Virus record (IMG/VR): IMGVR_UViG_3300022555_000013
Length of the DNA: 64,000 bases
Source of the DNA: an uncultured virus (IMG/VR IMGVR_UViG_3300022555_000013)
Taxonomy: Duplodnaviria > Heunggongvirae > Uroviricota > Caudoviricetes
Strand: one strand, 5' to 3'
Notes under the pieces: model-generated
The model's database searches: none
Told to the model about the DNA's origin: nothing
Seen by the model: the letters and a program-made list of their open reading frames with translations, nothing else
Translations under genes and position numbers: made by a program
Shown here: piece after piece, positions 1,921-57,597 of the stretch
How positions within the stretch are numbered: position 1 is the stretch's first letter
Layout of the letters: the number at the start of each line of letters is the position of its first letter

Positions 1921-2091
1921 CCCTATATTAAATCGTTGAAAACATTTTTCGCAACATAAATTAATTGATCCACCACCACTTGCACCTTCAATCATATTTC
2001 CACCACATGATGGGCATTTATTATCTTCGATGAAACTAATTTCCCAGTTTGTAGCTGACTCACCAACTTTACTTCTTTTTGGGGTTAGCAT
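1912..2091 (-). CDS. Small Zn-ribbon protein (59 aa), probably truncated by the IS607 insertion
   Basis: Hand-translated MLTPKRSKVG...CPSCGGNMIEGASGGGSINLCCEKCFQRFNIGVN*. The stop lies two codons inside the repeat-bearing IS end. Confidence 0.65.
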   Translation of the reverse strand: MLTPKRSKVGESATNWEISFIEDNKCPSCGGNMIEGASGGGSINLCCEKCFQRFNIGVN

Positions 2092-2413
2092 TTATTTTTT
2101 TCATTTTTTTCCTTCGTTCTCGTTTAACATCGACATACTCATTCGGAAAATTATCATAATCCAGAACTGGTTTATCACATGCTGTTCGCATCCATTCGAG
2201 TGTCGTTTTTAAATCAGCAATCGGATCATCAATATCATCATCCTCATAAACCCTTGGATTCATAGATTCTTCAGTACAAGAATCTGGATTATTATTATCA
2301 TCATAAAAAACTTCATACAATCCAAATTCAATTATGGTTGTATCAATTAAATCTTTACCTACTCGTTTTTTAGTCTTGATTCTTTTTGCTAATACTCTGT
2401 GGTTCCAATGCAT
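2069..2413 (-). CDS. Hypothetical protein with C-terminal RxxK[LIM]xx[IL] tag
   Basis: ORF track; ends RRKKMKKINANPKKK. Confidence 0.8.
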   Translation of the reverse strand: MHWNHRVLAKRIKTKKRVGKDLIDTTIIEFGLYEVFYDDNNNPDSCTEESMNPRVYEDDDIDDPIADLKTTLEWMRTACDKPVLDYDNFPNEYVDVKRERRKKMKKINANPKKK

Positions 2414-2519
2414 TTTTTAAATATTTTTCAACATGATAAATAACATCACTTGGTTTAACTACTTCCTTTCTTCTTCAACCTTTTCCTTTGGCATTTGTTC
2501 AAGAATTGTTTTCAATTCT

Positions 2520-2951
2520 TTAATCGATACTGATTTTTTCATATATCTTATTTAGTTTTAATTTTCTGTTTTGTTTAAGAATTTCTGGAAATTGATCGGG
2601 ATGAATTAATCTTCTTGCCCAAGAATTCAAATGATAGTTCCATTGTTTATCTAAAATTGTATATCGATATTGAACAGATTCGGTATTATCATTTATGCCC
2701 CATGGGTCAAAAACTTCTTTAATTTTTTGATTGAAACTATCATATTGGTGTATATCACATTCTTCAATATGCTTATTAATTTGTATTTTAATATGAATTA
2801 ATAAATGTTCAAAAAATTCATCATACAAAAAATAATATTCTTTTCGTAATTCAGGTGAACATAAATGATCCAATTTTAAATTGTACCACCTAAGTAATGG
2901 TTCTCTTTCCTGTGGTGTAATTTCGTATGGAATACTAATTGGCGGAAGCAT
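2520..2951 (-). CDS. Hypothetical protein with C-terminal RxxKLxxI tag
   Basis: ORF track; ends QNRKLKLNKIYEKISID. Confidence 0.8.
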   Translation of the reverse strand: MLPPISIPYEITPQEREPLLRWYNLKLDHLCSPELRKEYYFLYDEFFEHLLIHIKIQINKHIEECDIHQYDSFNQKIKEVFDPWGINDNTESVQYRYTILDKQWNYHLNSWARRLIHPDQFPEILKQNRKLKLNKIYEKISID

Positions 2952-3099
2952 CTTTCTTCAATGTTGGGAATAATTTATAAAATCTCTTCCATGCAGTCTT
3001 TCTACATTTTTTAGGGTATCTAATTCTACCACCGTTATGTAAATTACCAGTTCCAGTATTTCTATATGTTTTATTATCTTGCCGTGGTAATTTTGGCAT
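2935..3099 (-). CDS. Small basic hypothetical protein
   Basis: Likely start MPKLPRQD at 3099; IRYPKKCRKTAWKRFYKLFP; overlaps the next gene. Confidence 0.65.
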   Translation of the reverse strand: MPKLPRQDNKTYRNTGTGNLHNGGRIRYPKKCRKTAWKRFYKLFPTLKKDASAN

Positions 3100-3224
3100 A
3101 GTATTATAATATGAAGAATTATAAAAACTATAAATAAAGAATTCCCTCATGACATACTTTATTTTAATAACTGTTATAATATTAATAGATAATGCTTGAA
3201 ATTAACAATAACTATAATTAATAT

Positions 3225-3770: not shown

Positions 3771-4358
3771 TTATTTTCTGTTAAATTGTGCCTGAAGTCT
3801 TTCACGAACCTCTTCAATGTTTGTACCATCATATCGTACAACATTCGGATGCTTGAAATCTTTGTTGTGTTCATGTGCTGGCATGATCACCAAACCCCTT
3901 GGTCTGTGTTTCAACCAAGCTTGAATATACTCTGGAAAATCATCAACCAGCACCCAGCCATAAACTAATCCTTTATCATTGGTGATGGTTACGCCATTAA
4001 TATACTCCTTCATATTTTTATGGCACCATTCGACTTTTTCAGACCAAGCTGAAAATTTTCTGGATGGGCCTTTTGTGAGCACAACTATTTTGAATCCAAC
4101 TTTCTTCAATTCCACAAGAACATCAAACCCAAGCTTAAATTTTTTCAATTTAAGCCACCAACCAACCTGTGACGTGATCATGTGTCTACGGGCTTCTAAA
4201 TAGCCTCCACCCTTATAAATATCACCGCTGTTAATTGGCGGCTCATTTGGTGATGCAATTTTCTGGAGGTCTATTTCTAACTGACCATCATAATCGGCAC
4301 ATGTACCATCCAAATCTACTAAAGCAACTTTTTCGATTTCGGCTATTTTTTCAATCAT
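3771..4358 (-). CDS. HAD-superfamily 5'(3')-deoxyribonucleotidase (NT5C-like)
   Basis: Motif I ALVDLDGTCADY, motif II VLTKGP, and KGLVYGWVLVDDFP. Confidence 0.85.
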   Translation of the reverse strand: MIEKIAEIEKVALVDLDGTCADYDGQLEIDLQKIASPNEPPINSGDIYKGGGYLEARRHMITSQVGWWLKLKKFKLGFDVLVELKKVGFKIVVLTKGPSRKFSAWSEKVEWCHKNMKEYINGVTITNDKGLVYGWVLVDDFPEYIQAWLKHRPRGLVIMPAHEHNKDFKHPNVVRYDGTNIEEVRERLQAQFNRK

Positions 4359-4942
4359 AAGTCAAATCTATTGGAAAGTTTAAATTTATCATATTCTGTC
4401 ATACATATTTTTTGAGTTAAAAATCTGATATCTGAAAGTTTGAAGCACAAAAAAGCATCGCCTTCATATGCCCCAAGCGAAATAAGAAATGACTTTATGT
4501 CTTTAAATATTACATCAGAAACATCATCAGCACAATCATCGACAAAAAGGCACATTTCATTATCGTTAACGCCATTTAAATAAAATTCAAAATTACAAAT
4601 TTTTTTATATAATGTCTCATTATTAATTATTATCTTTTTTTCAAAAAAAATGAGCCTTATCCATTTAGATTCGATATGAGCATCAACATTTGGGTGAGCA
4701 ACTGAAAGATAATCTTCATCGGCATCAACAAGCTGGCAAATAAAATTGAATAACGATTTTATAAAATTGTAATATAATTTTTCTGTGATTCTTTTGATTG
4801 GTTTAATATTCATATATGGTCTCTTCCATTCATCTTCAAATCTTCGCTTCTGCTCTTCTACAGACAATACAGAATTTATACTTTTGGCTGAGCTTATAGA
4901 ATTTTTTATTCTATCATTTTCTTTTTTAGAATATTTTTTCAT
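4355..4942 (-). CDS. Hypothetical protein with C-terminal RFDL tag
   Basis: Ends EYDKFKLSNRFDL; ATGA overlaps at both ends. Confidence 0.8.
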   Translation of the reverse strand: MKKYSKKENDRIKNSISSAKSINSVLSVEEQKRRFEDEWKRPYMNIKPIKRITEKLYYNFIKSLFNFICQLVDADEDYLSVAHPNVDAHIESKWIRLIFFEKKIIINNETLYKKICNFEFYLNGVNDNEMCLFVDDCADDVSDVIFKDIKSFLISLGAYEGDAFLCFKLSDIRFLTQKICMTEYDKFKLSNRFDL

Positions 4943-5190
4943 AAGTCAAATTTTTTAAAATTTCTATTTTTTTCGTATTCGAGATTACTTTCCTTAAAAT
5001 GCTCACGCTTAAAATAACTTAATGCGCCTATTGATGTTCTTACATAATATGGTGCATTTGAAAACGTGGCATTGTTTCCATTTGGAAAAATTCTTAAAAC
5101 TTCAGTCTGCTCAATTTTATCATCATTGAACGCTGTCGCCAATCCAACCTTTATACCATTTAATTCCTGTACGGTTTTATATTTTTTCAT
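4939..5190 (-). CDS. Hypothetical protein with MKKYKTVQE leader and C-terminal KFDL tag
   Basis: Ends EYEKNRNFKKFDL. Confidence 0.8.
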   Translation of the reverse strand: MKKYKTVQELNGIKVGLATAFNDDKIEQTEVLRIFPNGNNATFSNAPYYVRTSIGALSYFKREHFKESNLEYEKNRNFKKFDL

Positions 5191-6614: not shown

Positions 6615-6890
6615 TTAGTTAATAATGATTGAATAATACTTTGTTAATTGAGAGTGCAAAGATATAAATAGTTTTTGGATAAAAAAAATTAAGTTTACAT
6701 AAAAATTAAACTTTCGTGTTTTAAAATTTATTCCGCTCACATTATCAAACATACCATTGGAAACTCTTTTCATAAGGTCAACCCTTTCATCAAGTTGAGC
6801 TAATAGATCAACCACATTTGGAAATTTGAATAAGTGACAACCAAACTCATTAGGATCATTAATTTTAAAATCTTCTTTATGTGTTTCCAT
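6615..6890 (-). CDS. Hypothetical protein
   Basis: ORF track. Its 3' part runs through the promoter of the next gene, so it may be truncated. Confidence 0.45.
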   Translation of the reverse strand: METHKEDFKINDPNEFGCHLFKFPNVVDLLAQLDERVDLMKRVSNGMFDNVSGINFKTRKFNFYVNLIFFIQKLFISLHSQLTKYYSIIIN

Positions 6891-7284
6891 TTTCCTTGGA
6901 ATTTATTTTTTTAAGTTTCTTATTTCTTGATTTTTTATATTTTTCAAAATACTCATTAAGACCCGATGTCATATCTGGACCAGTTAAAATAAAATGAGCA
7001 TCTGATAATATTTCAGTCAATGCCCTTACTTGATCATTCACCCAAAAAACCCACGAATCTTCTTCTTGATTAGTTGTACCCTTAGGTAACCTATCAATTC
7101 TTTTTAGATAATTTTCTATACTCTTTAAATATTGTATCCAGTCGGGTAGGACGTAATATTTTTTATCACCGTTTGTATACGCTTGGGATTCTTCTACAAT
7201 ATCTTCCAGATCATGAGAATTATACTTTTCTAATAATTTAAAATGTTCTTCTGTGATAAGAACAACTAAAGATTTCTTTGCCAT
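6877..7284 (-). CDS. Hypothetical protein with C-terminal RxxKLxxI tag
   Basis: Ends KSRNKKLKKINSKENGNT. Confidence 0.8.
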   Translation of the reverse strand: MAKKSLVVLITEEHFKLLEKYNSHDLEDIVEESQAYTNGDKKYYVLPDWIQYLKSIENYLKRIDRLPKGTTNQEEDSWVFWVNDQVRALTEILSDAHFILTGPDMTSGLNEYFEKYKKSRNKKLKKINSKENGNT

Positions 7285-7291: not shown

Positions 7292-7615
7292 CTATTTTTT
7301 TATATTATCAATAGCTTTCAAATACTGATCTTTTGATAAATATTGATCAACACTTTTATACCAATCTTCATATTTACACTCACCATTTTCTGGATATATA
7401 AAATCTATACCCCTATAAATAACTTCAATCTCATCCCCGTCTGGAACAACCCCTGCACGATATTTATAGACATAAACTTCACCGTCATAACTACAATCAT
7501 CATAATTAGTTTTTATATATCTAACCCATGCGCCTTCGAAATCGGATCGGGCGTTTTTGTTAACTTTAAATCCATATTCCGCCATTGCGGTTTTTAATTT
7601 ATCATTTTTTTCCAT
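7292..7615 (-). CDS. Hypothetical protein
   Basis: ORF track; likely ATG at 7615 overlapping the upstream RHH-like gene. Confidence 0.75.
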   Translation of the reverse strand: MEKNDKLKTAMAEYGFKVNKNARSDFEGAWVRYIKTNYDDCSYDGEVYVYKYRAGVVPDGDEIEVIYRGIDFIYPENGECKYEDWYKSVDQYLSKDQYLKAIDNIKK

Positions 7616-7766
7616 TTTTATCAATATCTTTTTTTATCAAATCCTCAATGTATTGAGATTTTGATAACTTCTTCTCCTCAATAACCTTATCCAGCAACTG
7701 ATCCAGTTCCGTGTTGATCGTGAGTGAAATCGCAACTTTCTTATTTGAAATTTTTGGTCTTCCCAT
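7602..7766 (-). CDS. Small ribbon-helix-helix (CopG/Arc-like) protein, 54 aa
   Basis: Hand-translated MGRPKISNKKVAISLTINTELDQLLDKVIEEKKLSKSQYIEDLIKKDIDKNGKK; near-identical copy at 54753-54908. Confidence 0.8.
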   Translation of the reverse strand: MGRPKISNKKVAISLTINTELDQLLDKVIEEKKLSKSQYIEDLIKKDIDKNGKK

Positions 7767-7856: not shown

Positions 7857-8018
7857 ATGAAAAAGGTTAAAACTAAGAAGAAGGTTAGTATAACCATGGA
7901 TCAGGATATTCTAAAGTATCTGGAAGATAACTTCGAGAATAAGTCCAAATACGTAGAATACCTCATTTATAAAGATTTGAAGGATGCTGGTGTAGTAAAA
8001 AAAGATATGATATTATGA
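7857..8018 (+). CDS. Small RHH-like protein, 53 aa, coupled to the downstream endonuclease
   Basis: Hand-translated MKKVKTKKKVSITMDQDILKYLEDNFENKSKYVEYLIYKDLKDAGVVKKDMIL; ATGA overlap with the start at 8015. Confidence 0.75.
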   Translation: MKKVKTKKKVSITMDQDILKYLEDNFENKSKYVEYLIYKDLKDAGVVKKDMIL

Positions 8019-9031: not shown

Positions 9032-10909
9032 TTATTTTACATCTTCATATTCAATATCAGAAACGTCCCCAGACTCCGTTTTTAAATGGTCATCAGGTTG
9101 TTGTTGAGTCTGTGCCTGTGAGTATAATTTCGAGCTGATACGATTCCAAACCTCGTTCAATTCTTTGGAATATTTGTCCAGATCAATCAGATTCTGGGTC
9201 TTGTGAGACTCTTTCAACTTCAAAATCATAGAATTTAATTCGTTCTTATCGGTTTCAGTCAATTTATCACCAAGGTCCTTAATCTGTTTTTCGGTTTGGA
9301 AAATCAATGAATCAGCCTGATTGAGTTTATCAATCTTTTCTTTTTCCTTTCGATCATTTTCGGCATTCTGCTCGGCTTCCGCTTTCATTCTCTCAATATC
9401 ATCTTTTGAAAGTGATGTGGAACCTTCAATACAAATTTTGTTCTCTTTTCCTGTAGCCTTATCTTTAGCTTTAACACTAACAATCCCATCATTAGATACC
9501 GTGAAATCAACCTCAATTTGAGGTATTCCTCGTGGTGCAGGGGGCAAATTATCCAATGTAAATTCACCTATTTTTTTGTTATCCTTTGCCATTGGTCGAT
9601 TCCCTTGAAGGACTACGATTTGTACTGATGGCTGGTTATCGGATGCTGTACTAAAAACCTGTGATTTTGAAATCGGTATTGTACTGTTACCCTCTATCAT
9701 GATGGTTGACACCCCACCGTATGTCTCTATCGATAAATTTAATGGGGTTACATCGAGTAGGAGTATATCTTTATTTTCACCAGAAATAACAGACCCCTGA
9801 ATACACGCCCCAGTCGAAATGGCATAATCTGGGTTAAGATTTCTATTAGCTTTTTTACCATCAAAGAATTCTTCAATCTTTTCTACAAGATACGGTACCC
9901 TTGTTGTTCCACCCACCAGAATTATTTGAGATAACTCAACTTTTTTCTTTTTTCCATCCGTAAGAGCCTTTTGGCAAAGCTCCAATGTTTCTTTAACATA
10001 AAAATCGATAAGTTGATTCAATTTTGCACGGTTAATTTTTTTTACCAGATGTCTTGGAATACCATCAATAACCGTAATATATGGCAAATTTATTTCAGTT
10101 TCAACAGTTGATGAAAGTTCAATCTTAGCTTTTTCAGCAGCTTCAACCAATCTCTGGAGTGCGAATGGGTCTTTACGTAGGTCAATATTGAACTCTTTTT
10201 GAAATTCATCTGCGATCATATTGACAATTGCCTCATCAATCAAATTTCCACCTAAATCGAGTGACCCAGCCTGAGATATAGTCTCATATAATTCGTTAGA
10301 TATATCAATAATTGAAATGTCGGTTGTGCACCCACCTGAGTCAATGACCATATACAAATTACCATCTTTGCTCTTATCACTAATGTTTAATGCGCTTGCG
10401 GTAGGTTCTGAGATAATTCTTTCTACTTTAAACCCAGCAATTTCAGCAGCTTGGCGAGTACTTGCCCTCTGATCGCTATTAAAATATGCAGGGACCGTAA
10501 CTACACAGCGGCTGACTTCTTCACCAAGATAGTCCTCAGCAGTTCTCTTAATTTTCTGTAAAATGATAGCTGAAATTTCTTCTGGTGAATATACTTTATC
10601 GCCAATCTTAACAGCGGCTCTGCCATTATTATCAACAATCTGATAAGGTCTTTTCAGATGTTTAACTTCATCGTATGAACGACCAATCAATCTTTTAATA
10701 TTGAATATTGTATTCTTTGGGTTCAGTGCAGCTTGACGCTTTGCTGGTTCTCCAACTTTCATTTCATTTGTTTTTTCATCCCATGAAACAATGGATGGGG
10801 TGTTGCTTGAGCCTTCAGAATTTGGTATTACAGTTGGTTGCCCACCTTCCATAACAGATACAACGCTCATGTAACTTCCCAAGTCAATTCCAATAATTTT
10901 ATTTCCCAT
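9032..10909 (-). CDS. dnaK: Hsp70/DnaK chaperone with divergent ATP-site motifs
   Basis: IIGIDLG, VTVPAYFN, EPTA, LVEAAEKAKIELSS, ILVGGTTRVP, LLLDVTPL, PAPRGIPQIEV; full length, 625 aa. Confidence 0.95.
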   Translation of the reverse strand: MGNKIIGIDLGSYMSVVSVMEGGQPTVIPNSEGSSNTPSIVSWDEKTNEMKVGEPAKRQAALNPKNTIFNIKRLIGRSYDEVKHLKRPYQIVDNNGRAAVKIGDKVYSPEEISAIILQKIKRTAEDYLGEEVSRCVVTVPAYFNSDQRASTRQAAEIAGFKVERIISEPTASALNISDKSKDGNLYMVIDSGGCTTDISIIDISNELYETISQAGSLDLGGNLIDEAIVNMIADEFQKEFNIDLRKDPFALQRLVEAAEKAKIELSSTVETEINLPYITVIDGIPRHLVKKINRAKLNQLIDFYVKETLELCQKALTDGKKKKVELSQIILVGGTTRVPYLVEKIEEFFDGKKANRNLNPDYAISTGACIQGSVISGENKDILLLDVTPLNLSIETYGGVSTIMIEGNSTIPISKSQVFSTASDNQPSVQIVVLQGNRPMAKDNKKIGEFTLDNLPPAPRGIPQIEVDFTVSNDGIVSVKAKDKATGKENKICIEGSTSLSKDDIERMKAEAEQNAENDRKEKEKIDKLNQADSLIFQTEKQIKDLGDKLTETDKNELNSMILKLKESHKTQNLIDLDKYSKELNEVWNRISSKLYSQAQTQQQPDDHLKTESGDVSDIEYEDVK

Positions 10910-10961: not shown

Positions 10962-11207
10962 TTATATGTCATTTTGTCCGTTTAGTTTAAAAAATTTAGT
11001 TAGTGAATCAATCATTTGCCTTGCATTCGCCATATCAAGAGGTGTGATTACCGAATCTATATCTAACGATCTAATTAATTCATCCAATTCTTCGATAAGA
11101 CCATCATCAGGGATAGCTAAATTTTCAAGTTGCATTAATTTTCGTTTTCTAAGTTCTTTTTTCCTAAAGAATTTAGCATGTTCAACCAATTTCTGGCGGT
11201 GATTCAT
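10962..11207 (-). CDS. Hypothetical protein with internal RxxKLxxL motif
   Basis: ELRKRKLMQLEN near the N-terminus. Confidence 0.7.
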   Translation of the reverse strand: MNHRQKLVEHAKFFRKKELRKRKLMQLENLAIPDDGLIEELDELIRSLDIDSVITPLDMANARQMIDSLTKFFKLNGQNDI

Positions 11208-11328
11208 CTTTTAATTTTTTTAATTTTTCGACCCTCTTTTTTCTTAATGCTTGCTTATCTAAAACATCTACTATTTGTTTCAGAACATCACTAATATCTT
11301 TAAGTGTTATTGGATTTTTAATTTCCAT
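11182..11328 (-). CDS. Small protein (48 aa) with RxxKLxxL tag
   Basis: Hand-translated MEIKNPITLKDISDVLKQIVDVLDKQALRKKRVEKLKKLKDESPPEIG; overlaps both neighbours. Confidence 0.7.
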   Translation of the reverse strand: MEIKNPITLKDISDVLKQIVDVLDKQALRKKRVEKLKKLKDESPPEIG

Positions 11329-11704
11329 TCAACTTACTTATTTTCATTTTACGAATTTCAGATTCAGTATAAAAATAATCATTGAAAAGTCTTTTACGAA
11401 TTTTTGATGGAATTTCTTGATCACCAAGTTGCTTTAAAAAAACAACAGTCCCACTTCGATGTGAATTTGGATTTTCACATTCAATATTCCAATACCGCAC
11501 TAAAATTGTGCTGAAACCTTCAACCTCTTGATATTTAGAACCATGAACATTATCACAACCATATGCTTGCCCACATTTAAATGTTACAATTTCAATTCCA
11601 TTAGAAAATTTGTGATGAAAATCTTTCTTACAAAGAGCCGTAAACTTAGATTCTAATTGTGTTTTTTGACCAAAATATCGTGATGATTGTGCAACTACTG
11701 GCAT
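11318..11704 (-). CDS. Hypothetical protein (CKK...F..G..Y paralogue family) with tag
   Basis: LCKKDF...FKCGQAY; ends FNDYFYTESEIRKMKISKLNGN. Confidence 0.75.
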   Translation of the reverse strand: MPVVAQSSRYFGQKTQLESKFTALCKKDFHHKFSNGIEIVTFKCGQAYGCDNVHGSKYQEVEGFSTILVRYWNIECENPNSHRSGTVVFLKQLGDQEIPSKIRKRLFNDYFYTESEIRKMKISKLNGN

Positions 11705-12033
11705 GATTCATTTTCTTTTAATTTTTCCAATTTTTTGATTCGTTCTTCACGTTTTCTTTTCTTAACCAATATTGGAAGTAATTTGTTTACTCTATCTATG
11801 GTAGCATTTGTTTTCTTTATGGATCGTTCCAACGACCAATCCATTATTGGTAATGCTATTAACATCAGAATAATTAATATTGGAGCACCAACAAATAATA
11901 AAATATATGGAGCACCAATAACCCACCATGACCAATTTATGATACCAAATATATTTAAAAAAGATAATGGCATTGGTGCCATAAAAATTAAAAATCCTAT
12001 CCATTGAAATATTTTTAATATTTTTTTTGTCAT
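11695..12033 (-). CDS. Membrane protein with C-terminal tag
   Basis: Hydrophobic segments around INWSWWVIGAP; ends REERIKKLEKLKENESCQ. Confidence 0.8.
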   Translation of the reverse strand: MTKKILKIFQWIGFLIFMAPMPLSFLNIFGIINWSWWVIGAPYILLFVGAPILIILMLIALPIMDWSLERSIKKTNATIDRVNKLLPILVKKRKREERIKKLEKLKENESCQ

Positions 12034-12042: not shown

Positions 12043-12375
12043 TTAGGTTATAGTATTATTTATCTTATCAAGTTTTAATTTTCTCTGGTGAACATCTATA
12101 AAATAATCGCCAAAATATTCATAAAAATCATTTTTTAGTATAGATGATTTAATTTTATTTTTTACAAATGAAAATCTCATTCCAGGAAGCACATCTATCA
12201 ATTTTCGTTTACTACTATTATTATAATCAATCATATCTTCCGCATGGTAATACACATAAATAATGTCTTCGGTAACATCAAGTTTGGCTGCTCTTGTATA
12301 TGTTTTACCAGCATGAAATGTTCCAAAAGAGCCTTCATATGTTTTTATACAAATATATTTAACGTTAAGTTCCAA
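12043..12375 (-). CDS. Hypothetical protein (CKK-family paralogue) with tag
   Basis: ICIKTY...FHAGKTY; ends FGDYFIDVHQRKLKLDKINNTIT. Confidence 0.75.
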   Translation of the reverse strand: MELNVKYICIKTYEGSFGTFHAGKTYTRAAKLDVTEDIIYVYYHAEDMIDYNNSSKRKLIDVLPGMRFSFVKNKIKSSILKNDFYEYFGDYFIDVHQRKLKLDKINNTIT

Positions 12376-12708
12376 GTTTTTTCAATTTTCTTTTTCTAAG
12401 TTCTGAATCCGAATAAAAAATATCATTATAGTCGGCCCAATCTCCTCTCCCCCTTTTTCTATCTTCTTCAACATACGGTTCTTGACCTATATCTTTAAAT
12501 AAAAATGCCCTCATAAAGTTGCCCCAAAACTTTTTTCAGAAGAGCTTACTGCTAAAGCTACCGCTGTTCTTTCATCATTCCAATAATCACAAAAAGTAAT
12601 AATATAACTTTTATCAACAGCAAAATCCAAAGACATTTCAGACATAATTCTACTTGAATAGTTCTTTTTACAAATTACTGTATCACCAACGTTAAACGGT
12701 AGTTTCAA
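12365..12708 (-). pseudogene. CKK-family paralogue split into two frames (12511-12708 and 12365-12514)
   Basis: The N-half has ICKKNY...FAVDKSY. The C-half (-1 frame) is MRAFLFKDIG...YNDIFYSDSELRKRKLKKLGT. The break falls near the A6/T4/G4 homopolymer runs at about 12522-12536. Confidence 0.6.
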
Positions 12709-12739
12709 TTTTTTTAAGTTTTAATTTTCTAACTTCCTA

Positions 12740-13291
12740 TCATAAACCTTCAATCTTTTTTAACTTAAGCTGCCTGACAAGTGCTTTTGTATCATTTGGG
12801 TAAGCCTTAATTGAGGCTTCTTGAACAATATCTTTAAGTGGTGGCTTGTTAATTATTTTAACATTCTCAAAACATCCCATAAATTCAGTATAAATACTGG
12901 ATATTTTAGTATCTAAATATTTATAAAATATTCTTGGTGCAGGAAACCCAACAACAAAATTACCGATATCAGCAACTTTGTCATAACAAATTTTATAAAT
13001 TAGAGTCATTTTAATCGTTTGACAACTATTTCCTTTATCTTCTTTATCAATAGAAAATCCCCACCCATATTCATTAATAAAGAATACTAATTTTCTACCG
13101 TCATCATTTTTAGGCGGAGAATATACAGAAAATCCAGCACACACAAAAAATTCTCTAAGGTCTTTGAATGCAATATTCCATATTCTTTGTTCATCCGATT
13201 TGCATTTTTTTTGAAATGCAATTTTATTTTTTTCTATGATCGAAAATTTTGTTGCGAAATCCCTTGGTGTATGAAATTTATATGCTGCCAT
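12740..13291 (-). CDS. Hypothetical protein with tag
   Basis: Ends LVRQLKLKKIEGL. Confidence 0.8.
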   Translation of the reverse strand: MAAYKFHTPRDFATKFSIIEKNKIAFQKKCKSDEQRIWNIAFKDLREFFVCAGFSVYSPPKNDDGRKLVFFINEYGWGFSIDKEDKGNSCQTIKMTLIYKICYDKVADIGNFVVGFPAPRIFYKYLDTKISSIYTEFMGCFENVKIINKPPLKDIVQEASIKAYPNDTKALVRQLKLKKIEGL

Positions 13292-13619
13292 TTATTTCTT
13301 GAAGTTTTTTTGTTCTTAACCACTTTTGATCTACCTTAAAATTAAAAATACAATTTATGTAATCCTGAGACAATTTCATAACATTATGAAAATGGTACTC
13401 ATAATTAAGCCCACGTTTTCCAACAATCGTTAAGAAACGACATTGCTCGTCAAAAGAAAATCCATCATGCTCACCATTTTCAAAAATAATAGCAACCCCA
13501 CGCTTATTACTATGGGTAAAGTCATCATATGTATCATATACGACACCTATTGCGCCAGCATCATTACCTAAGCAAGATACCAATAATTTAACTTGAGTTC
13601 CAACTATCATTTGATTCAT
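13278..13619 (-). CDS. Hypothetical protein with tag
   Basis: Ends WLRTKKLQEINGSI; TAATTTTG motif at 13624-13631 on the minus strand. Confidence 0.8.
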   Translation of the reverse strand: MNQMIVGTQVKLLVSCLGNDAGAIGVVYDTYDDFTHSNKRGVAIIFENGEHDGFSFDEQCRFLTIVGKRGLNYEYHFHNVMKLSQDYINCIFNFKVDQKWLRTKKLQEINGSI

Positions 13620-24685: not shown

Positions 24686-24692
24686 GTAAAAA

Positions 24693-48568: not shown

Positions 48569-51010
48569 ATGCAATATATTTTAAATAAAAGATTTGATGG
48601 AACATTCACGATGAACTGGGTTGGAACAGAAATATCAACTGCACAGAGAGATATAAAAACTTTTTTATCCGACCCAACACTTGGAATAAAGTCGATCACT
48701 AAATTCAATGATACTATTCGTGGAGCAACAACAGGCGGTACATCTCAGCACTATTTTGAAAGGTTATTTTCTTACAACAATGCCCGTAGTGGAGAAACTT
48801 GGATTGAAAATATTCCAATTTCTGCAATTACAATGGCTGTGTGTGATTTAAATAATTTTCAAATTGTACTAACATATTACAGAATTGATACCGATGTAAA
48901 AACACCAACTCTTTCTATTTCTGATATTGTAATCGAAGGCACATATGATATTGAAACTTCAACTGGAAATGTTGAAATTCCTTCAGGAAATACGTTTATT
49001 ATTATCACGCCTGTTGATATTTATAAAATATTCAAAATTACAGATTTCGAAATATATGGAATAAACACTGATCAGCTTAATATTAAATATAGAATAACTC
49101 AAGATGGTGGTAGGCATTACACCGAATGGGAGCCATTAACAATGGAGAACTTATCGACTATAAGAATTAATCCGCTCAGGTTTGCTCAGATGGAGTATTT
49201 GGTACAGAAAAAAGCTGGGTATGCTGGGTATGCAAAAATATATGACATTATTTTAGTTGGCGATTTTCAGAATATAAATTCAAATTATCTGAAATTAAAC
49301 AGATATGGGATAAAAGAAAATTGTGCTCATCCAACAAACGGTGGTACAAGCGGAACAAGTGGAACTGCTGGAAGCGGGGTTGATGTTTGTTTTTCAGGGA
49401 TGACAGTAAAAGGATGCACAACAGATCAAAATTATAATATGGATTGGAGCACTCAATTTTTAAGCTGTTATTTAAATTCCAATCCTTACAGTTTAACATC
49501 GAGTAACGCTGGGTCAATTGGAACCGTAAGTTCATCAATTGCTGCCGCTGGGCAATGGAAGCCATATGACTTTGAAAAAATTATAAGTTGGTACAATTTA
49601 CAAGCAATGCAAGTGAGTGATATGTTTGGATGGGATGTCGATTATCTGCTTAATGATCCAGATGGTAATGGTCAAGATATGACCCTACATGAAAATCAAC
49701 TTTTTAATATTGTGGATAGGCAAAAAGTTAAAATTATTGTAGATCAAAATCAATTCCCAGACAATCAAGTTCAAATTAATATTTACACACTTGATATGTT
49801 TGATACTTTTGAAGTTTTGATAATGAAGGATGAATTTAAAAAGGCATTTGGAATTGAAAAAAGACCAGCACAAAAAGATATTCTTAGCTTCTGTGTTACA
49901 AATAGGTTATATAGGGTTAAGCATGCTCAAATTTTTAAAGATATCATGTATGTTGGATTCTATTATAAGGTAGTATTAGAAAAATATGAAAAACTTGCCA
50001 ACGAAGATGTTGTGTCATCAGCAGCTCAGTCATTATTGACGGCATTAACTACAAATACAACACTTGACGAATTATTCAAATTTGAAAATAGAGAAGATAT
50101 GGGTAAAACAATTAAAAAGCAATTTAAGCCATTAACTCATGATCCATATCGTTCAGAAGTTAATCCGAAGGTTTCTATCGTAACAAAAGATATCATTAAC
50201 AATGGATTAGTTATTGCAAAGAGTTACTATGATTTCAATGCACTATCAGCATCAACAAGTGCAGTCACATATTCTATTTATGATCCAGAAATGTTGGTTA
50301 GTGATAATAGGGCATTTTCATTTTGGGTTAACTTCAACAATAAATATGATGAAAATAAAACCATAGACGAAAATGTATTTAACTCATATAATATTCCACT
50401 TAATTCATACTATGAATTTTTAAATAATTACGATGAAATTAATAAAAGTGGTTATAAAATTTGGTACAGTAATAAAATGTTTGGTGTTTTATTAAATGAT
50501 AAAACATATTTTGTTACTTGCAACGCATTAACAACAAACCTATGGTATGGTGTATTAATTAACATTAATAATAGGCAAAGAACTGTTGATTTAAGTGTGT
50601 ATAAAAGAGATTGTGAATACTATATTAAATTTTTTAACAAATCATACAATAGTGTATCTGTTGAATCATCAAATTTAACTGGAATAACATTTTATACAAG
50701 CACTGGGTATAAGCCTGTAAAAAACACCGATATATTGAAAAATATAGTAAACACATCTTTGCGTCAGCTTTACAGTCAAGAATACGATAATGTAGGACCA
50801 ATAAGTTTCATGGTTGATCAAACTATTACAGTAAATGCCTCCAATATTAAACTTACAAATATTAGAATTTTTGATGCTATTGTTCCAGATGAAGAAAAGA
50901 CTAATATTCTATGCCAAAATATCATTCATGATGGTAATCATTTAATTCTTGGGGATAATGCTAACAGACAACTTTATACCACAAATATACAGACTAAAAG
51001 ATGGGAATAA
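48569..51010 (+). CDS. Large structural protein with central T4 gp14-like neck domain and LamG-like C-terminus
   Basis: MFGWDVDYL...FEVLIMKDEFKKAFGIEKRPAQKDILSF...LYRV resembles gp14; AFSFWVN, NLWYGVLIN and LTNIRIFD are LamG-like. Confidence 0.6.
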   Translation: MQYILNKRFDGTFTMNWVGTEISTAQRDIKTFLSDPTLGIKSITKFNDTIRGATTGGTSQHYFERLFSYNNARSGETWIENIPISAITMAVCDLNNFQIVLTYYRIDTDVKTPTLSISDIVIEGTYDIETSTGNVEIPSGNTFIIITPVDIYKIFKITDFEIYGINTDQLNIKYRITQDGGRHYTEWEPLTMENLSTIRINPLRFAQMEYLVQKKAGYAGYAKIYDIILVGDFQNINSNYLKLNRYGIKENCAHPTNGGTSGTSGTAGSGVDVCFSGMTVKGCTTDQNYNMDWSTQFLSCYLNSNPYSLTSSNAGSIGTVSSSIAAAGQWKPYDFEKIISWYNLQAMQVSDMFGWDVDYLLNDPDGNGQDMTLHENQLFNIVDRQKVKIIVDQNQFPDNQVQINIYTLDMFDTFEVLIMKDEFKKAFGIEKRPAQKDILSFCVTNRLYRVKHAQIFKDIMYVGFYYKVVLEKYEKLANEDVVSSAAQSLLTALTTNTTLDELFKFENREDMGKTIKKQFKPLTHDPYRSEVNPKVSIVTKDIINNGLVIAKSYYDFNALSASTSAVTYSIYDPEMLVSDNRAFSFWVNFNNKYDENKTIDENVFNSYNIPLNSYYEFLNNYDEINKSGYKIWYSNKMFGVLLNDKTYFVTCNALTTNLWYGVLININNRQRTVDLSVYKRDCEYYIKFFNKSYNSVSVESSNLTGITFYTSTGYKPVKNTDILKNIVNTSLRQLYSQEYDNVGPISFMVDQTITVNASNIKLTNIRIFDAIVPDEEKTNILCQNIIHDGNHLILGDNANRQLYTTNIQTKRWE

Positions 51011-51525
51011 TAAAAATGTTCGAAGATTATACAGAGACTCAATGGACTTCAGAAATGAAACTAAAGTTTGATAATGCAAAATATATTGCTATAACTAAAT
51101 ATGAAGATTATGATGAACTAAATATAATAAAATTATACCAAGCTATTGTTGGAAATGCAAAAACTTTAATTCCAGCCAATACAAATACATTTAACCAAAC
51201 TTTGTCAAATCGTAGATTGCAAACTCAGAAAGATGATACATTTAATATTCTAATTTTTAAAGAGTCTATTGAATATATTTTAAATACGAAGATTATATCA
51301 TTTACCCAATTATATAAAAGTAATGATGATACAAGCCATGATACATCATCTGTATTAATTATAAAGACTTATATAATAAATGGACAACTTTATTTAGATG
51401 CTAAATATGATCCAACTAAAAATAGCTTTGGTTGGAAAATTCCAGTCGATATGAATATTCCAATAAAAATATGGAAAAAAGGAAAAGAAATAACTAAATG
51501 GGTAGCCAGTAGATTTGATCTTTAA
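51001..51525 (+). CDS. Hypothetical protein with IIKMFEDY leader and RFDL tag
   Basis: Ends EITKWVASRFDL. Confidence 0.8.
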   Translation: MGIIKMFEDYTETQWTSEMKLKFDNAKYIAITKYEDYDELNIIKLYQAIVGNAKTLIPANTNTFNQTLSNRRLQTQKDDTFNILIFKESIEYILNTKIISFTQLYKSNDDTSHDTSSVLIIKTYIINGQLYLDAKYDPTKNSFGWKIPVDMNIPIKIWKKGKEITKWVASRFDL

Positions 51526-52694: not shown

Positions 52695-52907
52695 TTATTT
52701 TGTTATTAATTGCAGTTTTCGCAATTTTTTTATTCTGGAGAGCCTTACTATCTCAAAGTATTCATTAAATGCTGGTTCCGTACTTTGAACTTTAAATCCC
52801 ATTCCGCTGACTTGATATTGATATTTTAAAATGAACTATACATATGTTATGACTTGGAAATTTTATGGTTAGAATATCTTCTATCCGTCTGGGGCGGAGA
52901 AGTTCAT
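52695..52907 (-). pseudogene. Frameshifted remnant of a tagged gene
   Basis: Fragments lie in different frames; the last one (52695-52802) reads MGFKVQSTEPAFNEYFEIVRLSRIKKLRKLQLITK. Confidence 0.5.
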
Positions 52908-53859: not shown

Positions 53860-54726
53860 ATGTTAAAAGATTATTCTCAATACTTAATGGAAAATATAAA
53901 AACTCCAACGCTTAAGGTTCCAACAGATCAGGAAGTAGAAGAAGCAGAAAAAATATTGGCAGATGATGTCAATCCTGACTGGGATGCTAAAAATGGGTAT
54001 TTTATTATTGATGTATCTGGTAAATATCACGTATACTATACATTATGGAGATATAAACCATCGATGGCAAATCAATATATCAGTTCAATGGTTTTTATAA
54101 CAAATTTAAGTACCGATTTTTTGACAGCGGTAAATAAATCCAAAAAAATATGCGGGAGAACTCCTATAATAATCGATAAAATTGGATCACATCAAGGATT
54201 ATTCAAAGCTCAAAAATCACAAATCTTAACTTTCGGAAAATATCGTGGAAGCACAATGGGTGAAGTTTTTGCAACAGACCCAAAGTATTTAGTATTTATG
54301 GCAAATAAATACGAGGGTGGGAATGCTGAAAGAATGGCATTATTTCAATTTTACAAATCTCTTTATTTTGAAAATGTAACTAAAGAAAATCGTGAAAAAG
54401 GAGTATCACAATATGTTGGTAATGTTGGTGACGAAATTGAAAAAGAATTCACACTATATAAAATGGAAAAGGTAGCTGGATTCAATGCTGGTGACCCACC
54501 TTCAAATTTACTGAAATTGAGGGATGATGATAAAAATCAATACACCATTTATTACAATAAAGAAATATCACCTGATACAAAAATTGGTGATAAAATAGTG
54601 ATAAAGGCAAAAATTAAAAGCCATTATGAAACTCTTGGGCTTAAATATACCAGACTCTATTATCCAAAAAATTTTGTAAATAAATCGCTTAATAAAAGAA
54701 ATGCAATAAATAGATTCGATTTGTAG
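53860..54726 (+). CDS. Hypothetical protein with FGKYRG module, OB-fold-like C-terminal half and RFDL tag
   Basis: Leader MLKDYSQYLME; LTFGKYRGSTMGEVFATDPKYL; ends NAINRFDL. Confidence 0.75.
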   Translation: MLKDYSQYLMENIKTPTLKVPTDQEVEEAEKILADDVNPDWDAKNGYFIIDVSGKYHVYYTLWRYKPSMANQYISSMVFITNLSTDFLTAVNKSKKICGRTPIIIDKIGSHQGLFKAQKSQILTFGKYRGSTMGEVFATDPKYLVFMANKYEGGNAERMALFQFYKSLYFENVTKENREKGVSQYVGNVGDEIEKEFTLYKMEKVAGFNAGDPPSNLLKLRDDDKNQYTIYYNKEISPDTKIGDKIVIKAKIKSHYETLGLKYTRLYYPKNFVNKSLNKRNAINRFDL

Positions 54727-54752: not shown

Positions 54753-54908
54753 ATGGGTAGACCAAAAATTTCAAGTAAGAAAGTTGCAATTTCTTTAACT
54801 ATCAACACCGAATTGGATCAGTTGCTGGATAAGATTGTTGAGGAAAAGAAGCTATCAAAATCACAATATATTGAGGCTTTGATAAAAAAAGATATTCATA
54901 AACATTAG
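54753..54908 (+). CDS. Small RHH protein, 51 aa, near-duplicate of 7602-7766
   Basis: Hand-translated MGRPKISSKKVAISLTINTELDQLLDKIVEEKKLSKSQYIEALIKKDIHKH. Confidence 0.8.
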   Translation: MGRPKISSKKVAISLTINTELDQLLDKIVEEKKLSKSQYIEALIKKDIHKH

Positions 54909-54920
54909 TAAAATAAGTTA

Positions 54921-55688
54921 TTACTGGATTAGGTTACTATAATAATGAACGCCCTTGATCTTAAAATCGAAAATAAATTCATCTGGTAAAGATGAGGACA
55001 TTATTCTTACTTCATTGTTTTTAATTATACATTTCATTTTCACATTTATTTCATTCCCCCAAAAATCAAAATTAAATGCTGCATCTTGTACAAATTCATT
55101 TTCCCAAATAATTGATGACTCTTCTTTTCTTGCCAGTAATGTTAAATAGCGTGTTCCATATTGAAACAATTTCTTTTTTCTGTGAATTTCAAATGTATCA
55201 CCGACATTCAAAGATTTTATATCAGCTATTCGATCTTCGGTGATCATATACCCTTGATATTCTAAATGCTTATATGATAATATATTCCTCTTGGGGTGAT
55301 CTGTATGTATAATCTTGTAACAAAGATAATCTTTATTCTTCGCCCAGTGCTGCTCTTGATTTATCGTACTAATAAATCGCACCACTTCTGATAGCGTATC
55401 TTTATTATTAATATATATTTTTTCAATATTAACGGAATTGCTTTGATGTTCTATAATAGTCCACAACCTGATAATTTTAGAATGGTTATAGGTAATGAAA
55501 TATTTGTCACAGAACAAGATATTATATTTCACATCCAAGATAAATTCTGGAAACATCTTTCTCAATTCGCTCAATTTAACTTTATTATAATACTCCCAGA
55601 CTTGACCCGTACTTAATTTATCAGGATTTATGACGAAAAGGTTCATTATAATAATGGAATTCTTAAAGAAAAAGATAAAATTAGGCAA
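54921..55688 (-). CDS. Hypothetical protein (true start may be MNLFVINP)
   Basis: ORF track. Confidence 0.65.
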   Translation of the reverse strand: MPNFIFFFKNSIIIMNLFVINPDKLSTGQVWEYYNKVKLSELRKMFPEFILDVKYNILFCDKYFITYNHSKIIRLWTIIEHQSNSVNIEKIYINNKDTLSEVVRFISTINQEQHWAKNKDYLCYKIIHTDHPKRNILSYKHLEYQGYMITEDRIADIKSLNVGDTFEIHRKKKLFQYGTRYLTLLARKEESSIIWENEFVQDAAFNFDFWGNEINVKMKCIIKNNEVRIMSSSLPDEFIFDFKIKGVHYYSNLIQ

Positions 55689-55736
55689 CAGGAGATTACC
55701 AATTTTTTAAAATGTATATTTATAAGAATAAAAGAC

Positions 55737-57293
55737 TCATAAGGCAATTTTTCTTTCATCAAAATCGAATTTCTGTTTCTTATAGATTTCATCTCTTCGG
55801 GATTCATAATGAGATATTAATATTGTCTTTATGCCTGGATAAAAAACATCGACTAAATCAAATACAACGAGCTTGGCTTTTTCGGAATGTATACGCATTC
55901 CACGTCCCACCGACTGCATCACAACACGGAAACTTTTATAACTATCGCAGAATACAATATTTGTGATAGCACGAATAGATACACCAGTACTCAATGTTCC
56001 ATATGAGGCAACAAGTATTTTTGGGTTTCCACTTGTATCTTCCATCATTTTTTTTATATACTCTCTTTTCTCATTCTTAATGCTCCCATCAATAAAATAA
56101 ATATCTTTACCAACGCAATTATCTCTCAAAAAATCATATAGGTCGGTGCCATATTCAATTGTATGAAATAATAAGAGAGAATTTTGCGTGAATTTATCTA
56201 CTAACACTTTAATAAACTTTTTTCTTTTTGCAGAATTGTGGATATATTCACGTTCCAAATGGAACGCTTTGGCCCCGTCAAATTTTCTTATTTTTGCAAC
56301 TCCATTAGCAAATTCTCTATTGTTATGTTGCAACATTATTGCTTTTATTTTGATGTTAGTTATTAGTCCTTTATCCATCAAACTACGGGCACTAATATTG
56401 ACTAAAATTGGGCCCATCAAAGATTCTATGGTGAGAATTTCAGACGTAGTTGTGTCAGGAAAAGTTCCGCTCATCCCAAATCGCATTTTTGCTGTCCCAA
56501 ACGTGCGGCTTAAAATTGATATTAAAGATTGTGCTTTTGCAAGATGGCTTTCGTCACAACAAACAACATCAAACTTAGAAAAAAAATCACGCTGTTTTTT
56601 TTCCAAACTTTGATAAGTTCCAATGAAAATATTTGCTTCTTGTTCACCATGGTATTTTCGTGGATTATCCGACATTATTTCTTCAATTTTTATTTCCATA
56701 GGATTTTTATTTTCATTTTTAAATCCATAATTATAATCCATTATATCATTATAAAATTGAGTTACAAGATTTATATTTGGAACAATCAATAGAAATTTTG
56801 CCTGAGGATTAATAAATTTCAAATAATAAAAAAGCAATGAACCATATATTAATGACTTACCCCCTGCCGTAGCAACTTGCAAAAGACCGTAATGATATTT
56901 TAAAATTTGATAAATACCATCAATCTGATGATCGTGCGGGGTAAATGGACTTAAACCGTCTTGTGTTTTATGATCTTTGAAAAAATCTTTAACAAAAGCA
57001 TCAATTGTTTCTCTTGTTATACTTAGATCAATAGGAAACTGCTCTTGGTTTTGAATAATAAATGGATATCCATATTGCCTACAACACTTGTAGACTTCGT
57101 TCCATAAGCCAAAATCCATAAAACCATCTTTGAAATAGTCTATATCACCATTCCATAGACCTAATTTAAATCTTGGACTAAAACGGTAATTTTTTACTTT
57201 TCTTGTTAAGAACAATTTAAGCTGGTTTAGTTCAGCCTTTGTGCTTTCAACTAATATTATTTTAGAATTATCTGCATTAAGTTTTAATTTCAT
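55737..57293 (-). CDS. uvsW: SF2 DNA helicase, T4 UvsW-like
   Basis: FSPRFKLGLWNGDI, Walker A ATAGGKS, DESH, GMSGT, STGVSI, QSVGRGMR, FDLVD. Confidence 0.9.
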   Translation of the reverse strand: MKLKLNADNSKIILVESTKAELNQLKLFLTRKVKNYRFSPRFKLGLWNGDIDYFKDGFMDFGLWNEVYKCCRQYGYPFIIQNQEQFPIDLSITRETIDAFVKDFFKDHKTQDGLSPFTPHDHQIDGIYQILKYHYGLLQVATAGGKSLIYGSLLFYYLKFINPQAKFLLIVPNINLVTQFYNDIMDYNYGFKNENKNPMEIKIEEIMSDNPRKYHGEQEANIFIGTYQSLEKKQRDFFSKFDVVCCDESHLAKAQSLISILSRTFGTAKMRFGMSGTFPDTTTSEILTIESLMGPILVNISARSLMDKGLITNIKIKAIMLQHNNREFANGVAKIRKFDGAKAFHLEREYIHNSAKRKKFIKVLVDKFTQNSLLLFHTIEYGTDLYDFLRDNCVGKDIYFIDGSIKNEKREYIKKMMEDTSGNPKILVASYGTLSTGVSIRAITNIVFCDSYKSFRVVMQSVGRGMRIHSEKAKLVVFDLVDVFYPGIKTILISHYESRRDEIYKKQKFDFDERKIAL

Positions 57294-57597
57294 TAATTTG
57301 CCTTAATTTTCTTTTTCGTTGATTGCCTAATCTATTTTTATAATAAATATATTCAAAGCCGAATCTCTTATATAGTCCTAAAATTCCATTTTGTTCTTCA
57401 CCACATTTACTACAATATTTATGCTTGATAAGCCCGTCCCAGTCATCATTAAACGTTAATAATAGAATATGCTTATGTGAAAATGGCGAAGATGGGAATC
57501 CATTTATTTCATCTAACATCCAATTCAATGTGATTTGCTCAATAAACCGCCATCTATGATATACACATTTATGCCACATCTTATTTATATCCACCAA
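57277..57597 (-). CDS. Small protein with tag, between the uvsY-like gene and uvsW
   Basis: CVYHRW...CSKCG; ends NQRKRKLRQINEIKT. Confidence 0.7.
   Translation of the reverse strand: MVDINKMWHKCVYHRWRFIEQITLNWMLDEINGFPSSPFSHKHILLLTFNDDWDGLIKHKYCSKCGEEQNGILGLYKRFGFEYIYYKNRLGNQRKRKLRQINEIKT

Follow-up and report, generated by a model that had tools for sequence, protein, structure and literature searches.

SspB carries a C-terminal XB peptide behind a linker, which binds the N-domain of ClpX, and MuA bears a C-terminal ClpX signal; the respective consensus strings, L-R-V-V-K and R-R-K-K-A-I, stand at the very end of the protein. In phage T4, the internal proteins IPI–III and Alt possess a capsid targeting sequence (CTS) at their N-terminus, which the prohead protease removes. 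Encapsulin cargo-loading peptides are C-terminal and are read by the inner face of a shell with the HK97 fold, the fold of tailed-phage capsids. Poxvirus ankyrin-repeat/PRANC proteins dock to Skp1 through a folded, F-box-like C-terminal domain of about 40 residues, and the MIM1 of ESCRT-III is a C-terminal amphipathic helix that binds the MIT domain of the AAA+ ATPase Vps4. In T4 and RB69, gp43, gp33 and gp55 have sliding-clamp-binding C-terminal tails. The present analysis concerns a C-terminal peptide tag, R-x-x-K-[LIM]-x-x-[IL], on small proteins encoded by an uncultured virus of the Caudoviricetes (IMG/VR record IMGVR_UViG_3300022555_000013), of which a stretch of 64,000 nucleotides (nt), here called the window, was analysed. 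The tag is real, strongly enriched and selected as a peptide, and forms a portable C-terminal helix at proteome scale in a group of megaphages. It would work like the docking peptides among these systems, from SspB to MIM1, but fails testable defining features of each of them.

A preliminary description of the window had listed 18 such peptides, all of which are found in the sequence as written. The one in the open reading frame (ORF) 10962–11207 is internal, as had been stated (residues 20–27 of 81), and the other 17 lie 2–9 residues before the stop codon. For one carrier, assigned to position 13700, the peptide is present but the coordinates were wrong, the actual ORF being 13682–14023 on the plus strand. 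The run of carriers upstream of the Hsp70 gene, described as nine consecutive genes, turned out to comprise nine in ten, since gene 12511–12708 is untagged. Enrichment was assessed in 92 window genes called by an own codon-usage-based procedure, counting the motif if its start falls in the last 20 residues. Fifteen of the 92 genes carry the tag, compared with a mean of 0.37 (standard deviation 0.60, maximum 3) in 2000 shuffles of each gene's last 20 residues, a check that the preliminary description had asked for. The same genes contain three internal matches in 17,374 positions and none in their N-terminal 20 residues. Carriers in this set measure 48–183 amino acids (aa), and none of the 30 genes longer than 200 aa is tagged, in agreement with the claim that the large enzymes and virion proteins do not end this way. 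Two further carriers lie outside the gene set, at 27516–27707 (63 aa) and 52695–52802 (35 aa, of doubtful coding status). They are the only ones with the motif at their end among about 377 other six-frame ORFs of at least 30 aa; in six-frame scans, the motif beside a stop is nearly confined to real gene ends. An artefact of chance or composition would see in the tag only Lys-rich C-termini of an AT-rich genome, and C-termini are indeed rich in Lys, Asn and Ile because they overlap A-rich start regions. The composition-preserving shuffles refute this explanation, and the reversed motif has no match at the C-termini of the window; its probability is considered negligible.

The window (G+C content 27–34% over 64 kb) encodes a full-length phage copy of Hsp70/DnaK at 9032–10909 on the minus strand (Pfam HSP70, E = 7.5e-195), which lies directly downstream of the run of tagged genes and is given as context only. 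Its products further include a UvsW-type helicase, the N-terminal part of a family-B DNA polymerase, dihydrofolate reductase, NAD synthase, sugar and methyl transferases and GIY-YIG endonucleases, together with many small ORFs without family match. T4-like character is indicated by UvsW, gp32 and the family-B polymerase in scans of the window and of G001, a related contig of 256,033 bp rated 36% complete. Relatives found through Hsp70 are IMG/VR phage contigs of 114–256 kb, and further relatives are published uncultured phages of 484–735 kb; a search of a phage collection returned no cultured relatives. Given these relatives, the window is a fragment of a T4-like megaphage that encodes Hsp70. 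A Shine-Dalgarno motif precedes only 6 of 91 gene starts in the window, and A is strongly preferred at positions −22 to −10 (up to 74%), a pattern that fits Bacteroidota-style translation initiation.

Tagged genes recur in the relatives. Fourteen tagged ORFs occupy 14.7 kb in L001, whose Hsp70 is 73% identical, and about 18 are found in 22 kb of L003/L010 (Hsp70 65% identical). Of the 460 genes called in G001, 115 are tagged; internal matches number 15 over 76,582 aa, and the gene call missed about eight more tagged ORFs. The phage genome LR756504.1 (636 kb, 910 own gene calls) has 56 strict C-terminal matches and 103 matches to the broader pattern R..[KR][LIMV]..[ILMV], for which shuffles give 7.0 ± 2.5 (maximum 16 in 300 shuffles). 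The tag is lacking in LR756501.1 (735 kb, 979 gene calls), with 6 matches versus 5.3 ± 2.1 in shuffles; 14 of its genes end in K-R-T-[KE]-L-I-D-[KE]-h-L, which is likely a tag derivative. These two genomes also speak against an artefact of composition. The preliminary description had overlooked this much larger scale of the tag in relatives, as well as its link to gene junctions and a second tail tag, both treated below.

The codons of the tag bear on whether the peptide or its coding sequence is maintained. As described earlier, Arg1 uses AGA, AGG, CGT, CGA and CGC. Among the 15 window tags, AGA occurs seven times, CGA and AGG three times each, and CGT and CGC once each; the genome-wide shares of Arg codons are 51% AGA, 15% CGT, 14% CGA and 14% AGG. 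Leu5 is encoded by TTA, CTT, TTG and CTA in genome-like proportions. The Arg, Leu and Ile codons of the tag also follow genome-wide synonymous usage in G001 (115 tags) and LR756504.1 (103 tags), and selection therefore acts on the peptide rather than on a DNA repeat, as the preliminary description had argued from the window alone. A degenerate DNA pattern for the tag gave counts near control and was uninformative.

The peptide is attached to diverse bodies, as had been claimed. Trimming of the tag left 127 bodies that form 86 BLAST clusters, comprising 75 singletons and three expanded families of 19, 11 and 6 members; likewise, the 103 bodies of LR756504.1 form 78 clusters. Scans against Pfam and PHROGs gave no informative match for the window carriers, and Pfam gave none for 102 of the 103 carriers of LR756504.1. 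The sole matched carrier is ribosomal protein S21, which is probably a chance match to the motif.

Conservation among orthologues, a further check named in the preliminary description, was found in two families. For gene 2069–2413, seven of eight database homologues (44–98% identity) keep R-x-K-K-[LM]-x-x-I with a varying tail, the eighth being a truncated protein; its homologues in L001 and G001 are also tagged. The second family was reached through the tagged G001 protein 24592–25164, which has a Pfam Tad3 domain. It comprises 488 homologues at E ≤ 0.001, and the following figures cover the best 120 of these 488. Eighty-five are tagged and 35 untagged. In 79 of the 85, the distance from the beginning of the body's last conserved motif to the tag is 13 residues, and most of the 35 untagged homologues stop 2–12 residues after that motif. 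Among 79 distinct tagged homologues, column entropy is 0 at Arg1 and Lys4, 0.17 at Leu5 and 0.87 at position 8, and amounts to 1.5–3.1 at the x positions and in the tail. As this family exists with and without the tag, the tag is an add-on to complete domains. According to a 2026 review, the Thoeris sensor ThsB is a direct binding partner of Tad3 (PMC13728456). The bodies of the carriers thus include at least one that belongs to a class of binders of host defence proteins.

A profile of the module, A2, was built from 129 sequences and searched against 1.84 billion representative proteins. It retrieved 51 proteins at E ≤ 0.001, all of 41–126 aa, in 47 of which the match ends at most four residues from the C-terminus; most are small 'MKVGDK..C..' proteins. 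Three database proteins (P0017, P0037 and P0041) contain tandem double modules, as expected if the stop between neighbouring cassettes was lost. The search found no cellular proteins with the module; for a motif this short, that is no more than a weak hint against imitation of a host signal by the tag. Against five complete megaphages the profile gave 0–2 weak matches each, and it missed the variant of LR756504.1. Among 27 scanned module-profile matches, six hit PF24203 (Phage_ProQ_C_like) at E ≤ 0.022; none of the 27 reached the curated cut-off of 27 bits, the best score being 25.6 bits.

The residues of the tag differ between lineages in a concerted manner. In G001, C-terminal versus internal matches number 115 versus 15 for R..K and 24 versus 33 for K..K, and the R..R variant has one C-terminal match. 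Arg1 and Lys4 are hence specific in the window clade. Anchored on Arg1, 132 instances from the window and G001 give the extended consensus F(-7)-[IY]-[TS]-[KL]-K-E-[ILY]-R-K-x-K-L-x-K-[LI]-N-[EK], followed by a tail that ends 1–12 residues (mode 4) after the tag. LR756504.1 has the consensus R-K-x-[KR]-I-[ED]-N-L-L-end, its commonest tail being one residue long, and several of its carriers share an F-x-T-x-x-E-Y lead-in. At position 5, L occurs 109 times, I 22 times and M once in the 132 instances, versus 97 I, 4 L and 2 V in the 103 of LR756504.1; position 4 is only K in the window clade, whereas LR756504.1 has 63 K and 40 R. Since the core of R1, K/R4 and hydrophobic residues at positions 5 and 8 is shared by the window clade and LR756504.1, it is old in this phage group, and each lineage has its own version across all its carriers. 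Such joint shifts of the tag on carriers that are unrelated but belong to one lineage would be expected if they had a reader in common.

The same comparison bears on the proposal that a non-specific basic amphipathic helix sticks to membrane, DNA or RNA by charge. The tag of the window clade is indeed Lys-rich at positions 2, 4 and 7 and amphipathic. Yet Lys does not replace Arg1, nor Arg Lys4, in that clade, and only two hydrophobic positions are conserved. The variant of LR756504.1 keeps R1, K/R4, I5 and L8 while carrying Glu, Asp or Asn at positions 6–7, which makes it near neutral. Net charge is thus not conserved between clades, and 'basic', as the tag had been called, does not describe it in general. 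Charge-driven sticking is regarded as very improbable.

The commonest carrier class is predicted to consist of a small SH3-like β-barrel, a short strand formed by the F-Y-T part and a terminal helix at residues 74–90 (alignment of 40 sequences). The predicted local distance difference test (pLDDT) of this model is 92–94 over blocks within 71–90 and 86 on average. In fold searches of PDB and BFVD it matched nothing at E ≤ 0.001, the weak matches obtained being SH3- and KOW-like. By helix geometry, positions 1, 4, 5 and 8 would share one face. The helix might be an inherited family feature, kept for folding or self-association in one or a few fast-evolving superfamilies and spread to unrelated bodies by recombination within arrays, with no shared external reader. 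The shared β-barrel and helix of the commonest carriers, to which most of the 51 database matches belong, the high confidence of the predicted helix in that family and the presence of tandem paralogue arrays agree with such an origin. It does not explain why membrane-like, zinc-ribbon-like and Tad3-domain carriers are tagged too, or why a complete Tad3-domain body occurs with and without the tag. Arg and Lys on the same face as the hydrophobic residues would be odd for a self-packing or coiled-coil face, and in the AlphaFold2 model of the gene 2069–2413 product the tag helix (92–108) is separate from the body, at low pLDDT. An inherited family helix is therefore rated as distinctly unlikely.

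On balance it is probable, although not strongly so, that the tag is an address or docking helix read by one co-evolving partner. The module is a portable C-terminal unit of about 18 residues. Its first part is short and aromatic or hydrophobic, commonly F-[YI]-[TS]; an S/T-x-x-E helix cap comes next, and then a two-turn amphipathic helix, one face of which presents Arg1, Lys4, Leu/Ile5 and Leu/Ile8, before the module ends in a short unconserved tail. Megaphages of the group attach it to small, fast-turning-over accessory proteins, and one common reader would recognise the R/K/L/L face and change together with the tag. Enrichment, peptide-level selection, portability, orthologue conservation and lineage-wide concerted variants were all observed; from them we infer the single partner and its role. 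The foremost role, although in itself unlikely, would be that of a tether, by which the carrier and a host protein held by its variable body are brought to a shared machine such as an unfoldase, protease or chaperone, following a logic like that of SspB or of poxvirus ankyrin/F-box proteins. A timed degron for the removal of early proteins is somewhat less likely. Of low probability are a signal that loads accessory proteins into the capsid for co-injection and, to a similar degree, some other localisation.

Compared with the known systems, SspB and MuA resemble the carriers in having a short C-terminal peptide behind a linker on a small β-rich binding body, and docking on a shared machine is what would be common to both. 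The basic MuA tail, R-R-K-K-x-I, is also similar in flavour to RRKKMKKI of gene 2069. Their consensus strings are not matched, however, the tag lies 1–12 residues from the end in the window clade, and it occurs on 11–25% of all genes. The T4 CTS likewise serves as one short address on unrelated proteins, and the phage studied here is T4-like, but the tag is C-terminal (0 of 92 genes have it at the N-terminus), lacks a conserved motif for cleavage and is found on what look like early accessory genes. Encapsulin cargo peptides share the C-terminal position on unrelated proteins; they differ in their Gly-rich linker, a hydrophobic-Gly pattern and far fewer cargo types. The poxvirus ankyrin-repeat/PRANC proteins offer a parallel in a large viral multigene set with variable bodies and one conserved C-terminal element, and G001 encodes four ankyrin proteins with the second tag and a Tad3-domain protein with the main one. 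The megaphage element, in contrast to their folded domain, is a two-turn helix. MIM1 is also a C-terminal amphipathic helix with a basic-hydrophobic-x-x-hydrophobic pattern, but has Leu at the position of Arg1, and general scans revealed no MIT- or Vps4-like gene.

Several points weigh against a helix with one common reader. The genes were called heuristically, and not every small ORF need be a gene. The spread is in part due to the expansion of paralogues, as seen in the G001 families of 19, 11 and 6 members, because many carriers share the small β-barrel body, and concerted variants could arise through gene conversion within arrays. No reader was found by family scans or differential gene content. 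The preliminary description had suggested docking of a diverse proteome on one hub; portability, diverse carriers and lineage-concerted variants support this part, while no hub was identified.

The remaining points concern gene junctions. Tagged genes form dense arrays in which they overlap the next gene by 8–26 nt, whereas untagged small genes mostly overlap by a 4-nt ATGA. The next start falls at +2 after the codon of position 8 in 23 of 107 cases in G001 and 4 of 14 in the window. Because the next start sits just past the tag core, Asn9-Glu10 can largely be explained as the ATG-AAA of the following gene in a different frame; the tail is often read-through into the start region of that gene. 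A close same-strand downstream gene follows 88 of 113 tagged versus 147 of 242 untagged genes in G001 (Fisher p = 0.002) and 63 of 97 versus 250 of 529 in LR756504.1 (p = 0.002).

The tag could accordingly be a gene-junction device that acts in cis on expression of the next gene. The nascent peptide might pause the ribosome near termination from within the exit tunnel and aid re-initiation at the overlapping start; alternatively, the coding DNA might be kept as an A-rich initiation region and as a recombination joint of gene cassettes. Besides the overlaps and the enriched downstream neighbours, the A-rich starts with few Shine-Dalgarno motifs are in line with such a role. So are orphan tag copies that persist directly upstream of genes (12695–12739 and inside ORF 10962), the three database proteins with tandem tags, and a genomic slot that holds different tagged genes in the window and G001. 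Synonymous codons for R, L and I that follow genome usage argue that the RNA sequence is not what is kept. No same-strand gene starts within 30 nt of 34 of 97 tagged genes in LR756504.1, 25 of 113 in G001 and 4 of 15 in the window. The distances from tag to stop (0–12 residues) and from tag to next start are broad, whereas known arrest peptides act at a fixed distance, and the Tad3-domain protein exists tagged and untagged. Given the 22–35% of tagged genes without a close neighbour and the free synonymous sites, a purely cis role is ranked as a rival only, and a quite doubtful one; the docking helix remains the favoured reading.

In the search for a reader of this helix, neither a J-domain protein (PF00226 absent) nor GrpE was found in G001–G003, and DnaJ had no match at E ≤ 0.01 among 74 scanned window proteins. 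No Clp or Lon protein was seen in the window or among 127 scanned G001 proteins of at least 170 aa. Arrays of tagged genes lie beside Hsp70 in the window, L001 and L003/L010; this adjacency is not independent evidence, because the related genomes were found through Hsp70. The Hsp70 gene of LR756504.1 has no more than four tagged genes within about 8 kb. The genes present in LR756504.1 and the window clade and absent from LR756501.1 encode homing endonucleases, a resolvase with a partner gene, a SIS protein, a nuclease and an IMPDH-like product, and contain no reader candidate. The preliminary description knew of no function for the tag, and no description of such a tag was found in the literature, subscription-journal full text not being covered. 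The passages of one preprint that refer to conserved C-termini concern sortase signals, not a tag of this kind.

Individual carriers of the window were located in the sequence as follows. On the minus strand, the 114-aa carrier at 2069–2413 has RRKKMKKI at nt 2093–2116 and a seven-residue tail; a 143-aa carrier at 2520–2951 has RKLKLNKI at nt 2544–2567, and a 135-aa carrier at 6877–7284 has RNKKLKKI at nt 6904–6927. Upstream of Hsp70, on the same strand, lies the 81-aa ORF 10962–11207. Direct reading shows an internal, full-length tag module, FFRKKELRKRKLMQLEN, with its core at nt 11127–11150 and an ATG within the tag; it is probably a remnant or a fusion. The carriers that follow on the minus strand are one of 48 aa at 11182–11328 (RVEKLKKL, nt 11212–11235), to which the public protein P0014 is identical, and one of 128 aa at 11318–11704 (RKMKISKL, nt 11330–11353). 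Next come a 112-aa carrier at 11695–12033 with a hydrophobic, membrane-like N-terminal half (RIKKLEKL, nt 11719–11742), a 110-aa carrier at 12043–12375 with an SH3-like body (RKLKLDKI, nt 12061–12084) and a 49-aa carrier at 12365–12514 (RKRKLKKL, nt 12374–12397).

Past the untagged gap gene 12511–12708, the 183-aa carrier at 12740–13291, also on the minus strand, has RQLKLKKI at nt 12752–12775; a homologue search with its product matched only itself. Its two stop codons are directly followed, in frame, by an orphan tag copy at 12695–12739 (minus strand), which reads EVRKLKLKKIETTV and a stop and lies just upstream of the gap gene. Two 113-aa carriers complete the run, one at 13278–13619 on the minus strand (RTKKLQEI, nt 13293–13316) and one on the opposite strand at 13682–14023 (RKEKLNKI, nt 13979–14002), the G001 homologue of which is tagged too. 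The N-terminal extension of the GIY-YIG ORF 14146–14727 contains a tag-like RAFKLSRI at 14611–14634 (minus strand), possibly, at low confidence, the remnant of a displaced carrier. Together, the copies at 12695–12739, 11127–11150 and 14611–14634, which stand outside normal gene ends, look like remnants of lost or displaced carriers.

Elsewhere in the window, the plus strand encodes an 89-aa carrier at 25525–25794 (RKDKLKNI, nt 25750–25773), the zinc-ribbon-like CxxC...CxxC carrier at 27516–27707 (RISKIKKL, nt 27666–27689) and a 67-aa carrier at 29150–29353 (RKTKINKL, nt 29315–29338), the last gene before a convergent gene. The minus strand encodes a 152-aa carrier at 43710–44168 (RQLKIEQI, nt 43734–43757), the doubtful 35-aa ORF at 52695–52802 (RIKKLRKL, nt 52713–52736) and a 106-aa carrier at 57277–57597 (RKRKLRQI, nt 57295–57318), the tail of which overlaps the start of the UvsW-like helicase gene. 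The slot of this last gene holds three other tagged genes in G001.

A second tag was recognised at the very end of other proteins. The last residues are exactly [RK]-F-D-L in five of 92 window genes (0.045 in shuffles), and 62 of 460 G001 genes end in [KN]-F-N-[LIM] (0.29 in shuffles), mostly KFN[LI]; both forms are preceded by a helix with an S/T-x-x-E cap. The window examples are a 195-aa protein ending in NRFDL (4355–4942, minus strand), an 83-aa protein ending in KKFDL (4939–5190, minus strand), a 196-aa protein ending in KRFDL (37912–38502, plus strand), a 174-aa protein ending in SRFDL (51001–51525, plus strand) and a 288-aa protein with an ExoX-like_C domain ending in NRFDL (53860–54726, plus strand). 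The G001 homologue of gene 37912 ends in NKFNL and the G001 orthologue of the ExoX-like protein (42% identity) in ANFNM. These two orthologous pairs show that the form switches with lineage. In G001 the last codon is always NTA and AAC accounts for 50%, versus 9% genome-wide, a nucleotide skew that in part reflects a TA-TGA start overlap. The main and the second tag together occur on 177 of 460 G001 genes. The clamp-binding tails of T4-like phages resemble the second tag in placing hydrophobic and acidic last residues on several proteins, one tagged protein having the ExoX-like_C domain; they differ in that the 62 G001 carriers, which include four ankyrin-repeat proteins, are far more than the usual clients of the clamp.

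Another C-terminal element, DPYGEE[DEN]W, ends 41 of 979 genes in LR756501.1, with 109 occurrences in 94 genes, and was also found in L002, L004, L006 and L007; it is absent from the window, G001 and LR756504.1. A wider proposal, put forward tentatively and less probable than the docking helix itself, is a proteome-scale addressing code, in which clade-specific C-terminal tags, each with a co-evolving phage-encoded receptor, would sort up to a third of gene products. The tags so far would be R-x-x-K-h-x-x-h, KFN[LI]-end or RFDL-end, and DPYGEExW. In one form of this code, small target-binding bodies (SH3-like, ankyrin, Tad3-like) would serve as adaptors that bring host defence proteins to a common machine for destruction or sequestration, like the poxvirus ankyrin/F-box adaptors. 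In another, the tags would direct a set of anti-defence weapons into the capsid, to be co-injected with the DNA.

Some further features of these genomes may be recorded. Anti-defence proteins with a Tad3 and an Acb3 domain and a Cas6 and Cas3-like pair are encoded in G001 (L013:5592–6161, L019:5432–6196, L018:13664–14365 and L018:16997–19291), as are at least eight ankyrin-repeat proteins. In the window, the ORF of the family-B DNA polymerase (40469–41944, minus strand) covers the exonuclease domain and the beginning of the polymerase domain, where it ends, and is followed by a DUF7487 gene (39289–40290, minus strand) in the same arrangement as in G001; no second half of the polymerase was found. 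A serine resolvase with a MerR-type helix-turn-helix is encoded at 952–1617 (minus strand), its counterpart region in G001 being 78008–80244. The G001 resolvase adjoins a 533-aa gene, and an OrfB_IS605/TnpB-like match was obtained for another gene of G001; the resolvase and TnpB-like genes suggest mobile elements within the phage genome. Four small ribbon-helix-helix-like paralogues in the window (7602–7766, 7857–8018, 40274–40417 and 54753–54908) have similar C-terminal parts (..KSQYIE.LIKKDI..), and each is located beside or near a homing-endonuclease-like or mobile gene.

Families in which the same body is tagged and untagged provide ready-made experimental controls, and the tag peptide, used as bait, would be a direct handle on the hub of the pathway. 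If the tag is a true tether, degron or packaging signal, it would represent a portable tool for Bacteroidota-type hosts. It would also mark likely genes of host takeover and anti-defence, in line with one carrier family having the Tad3 anti-Thoeris domain. Most megaphage genes lack a known function, and a label on 11–25% of proteins, or on 38% of genes in G001 with the second tag included, would group hundreds of orphans into one pathway.

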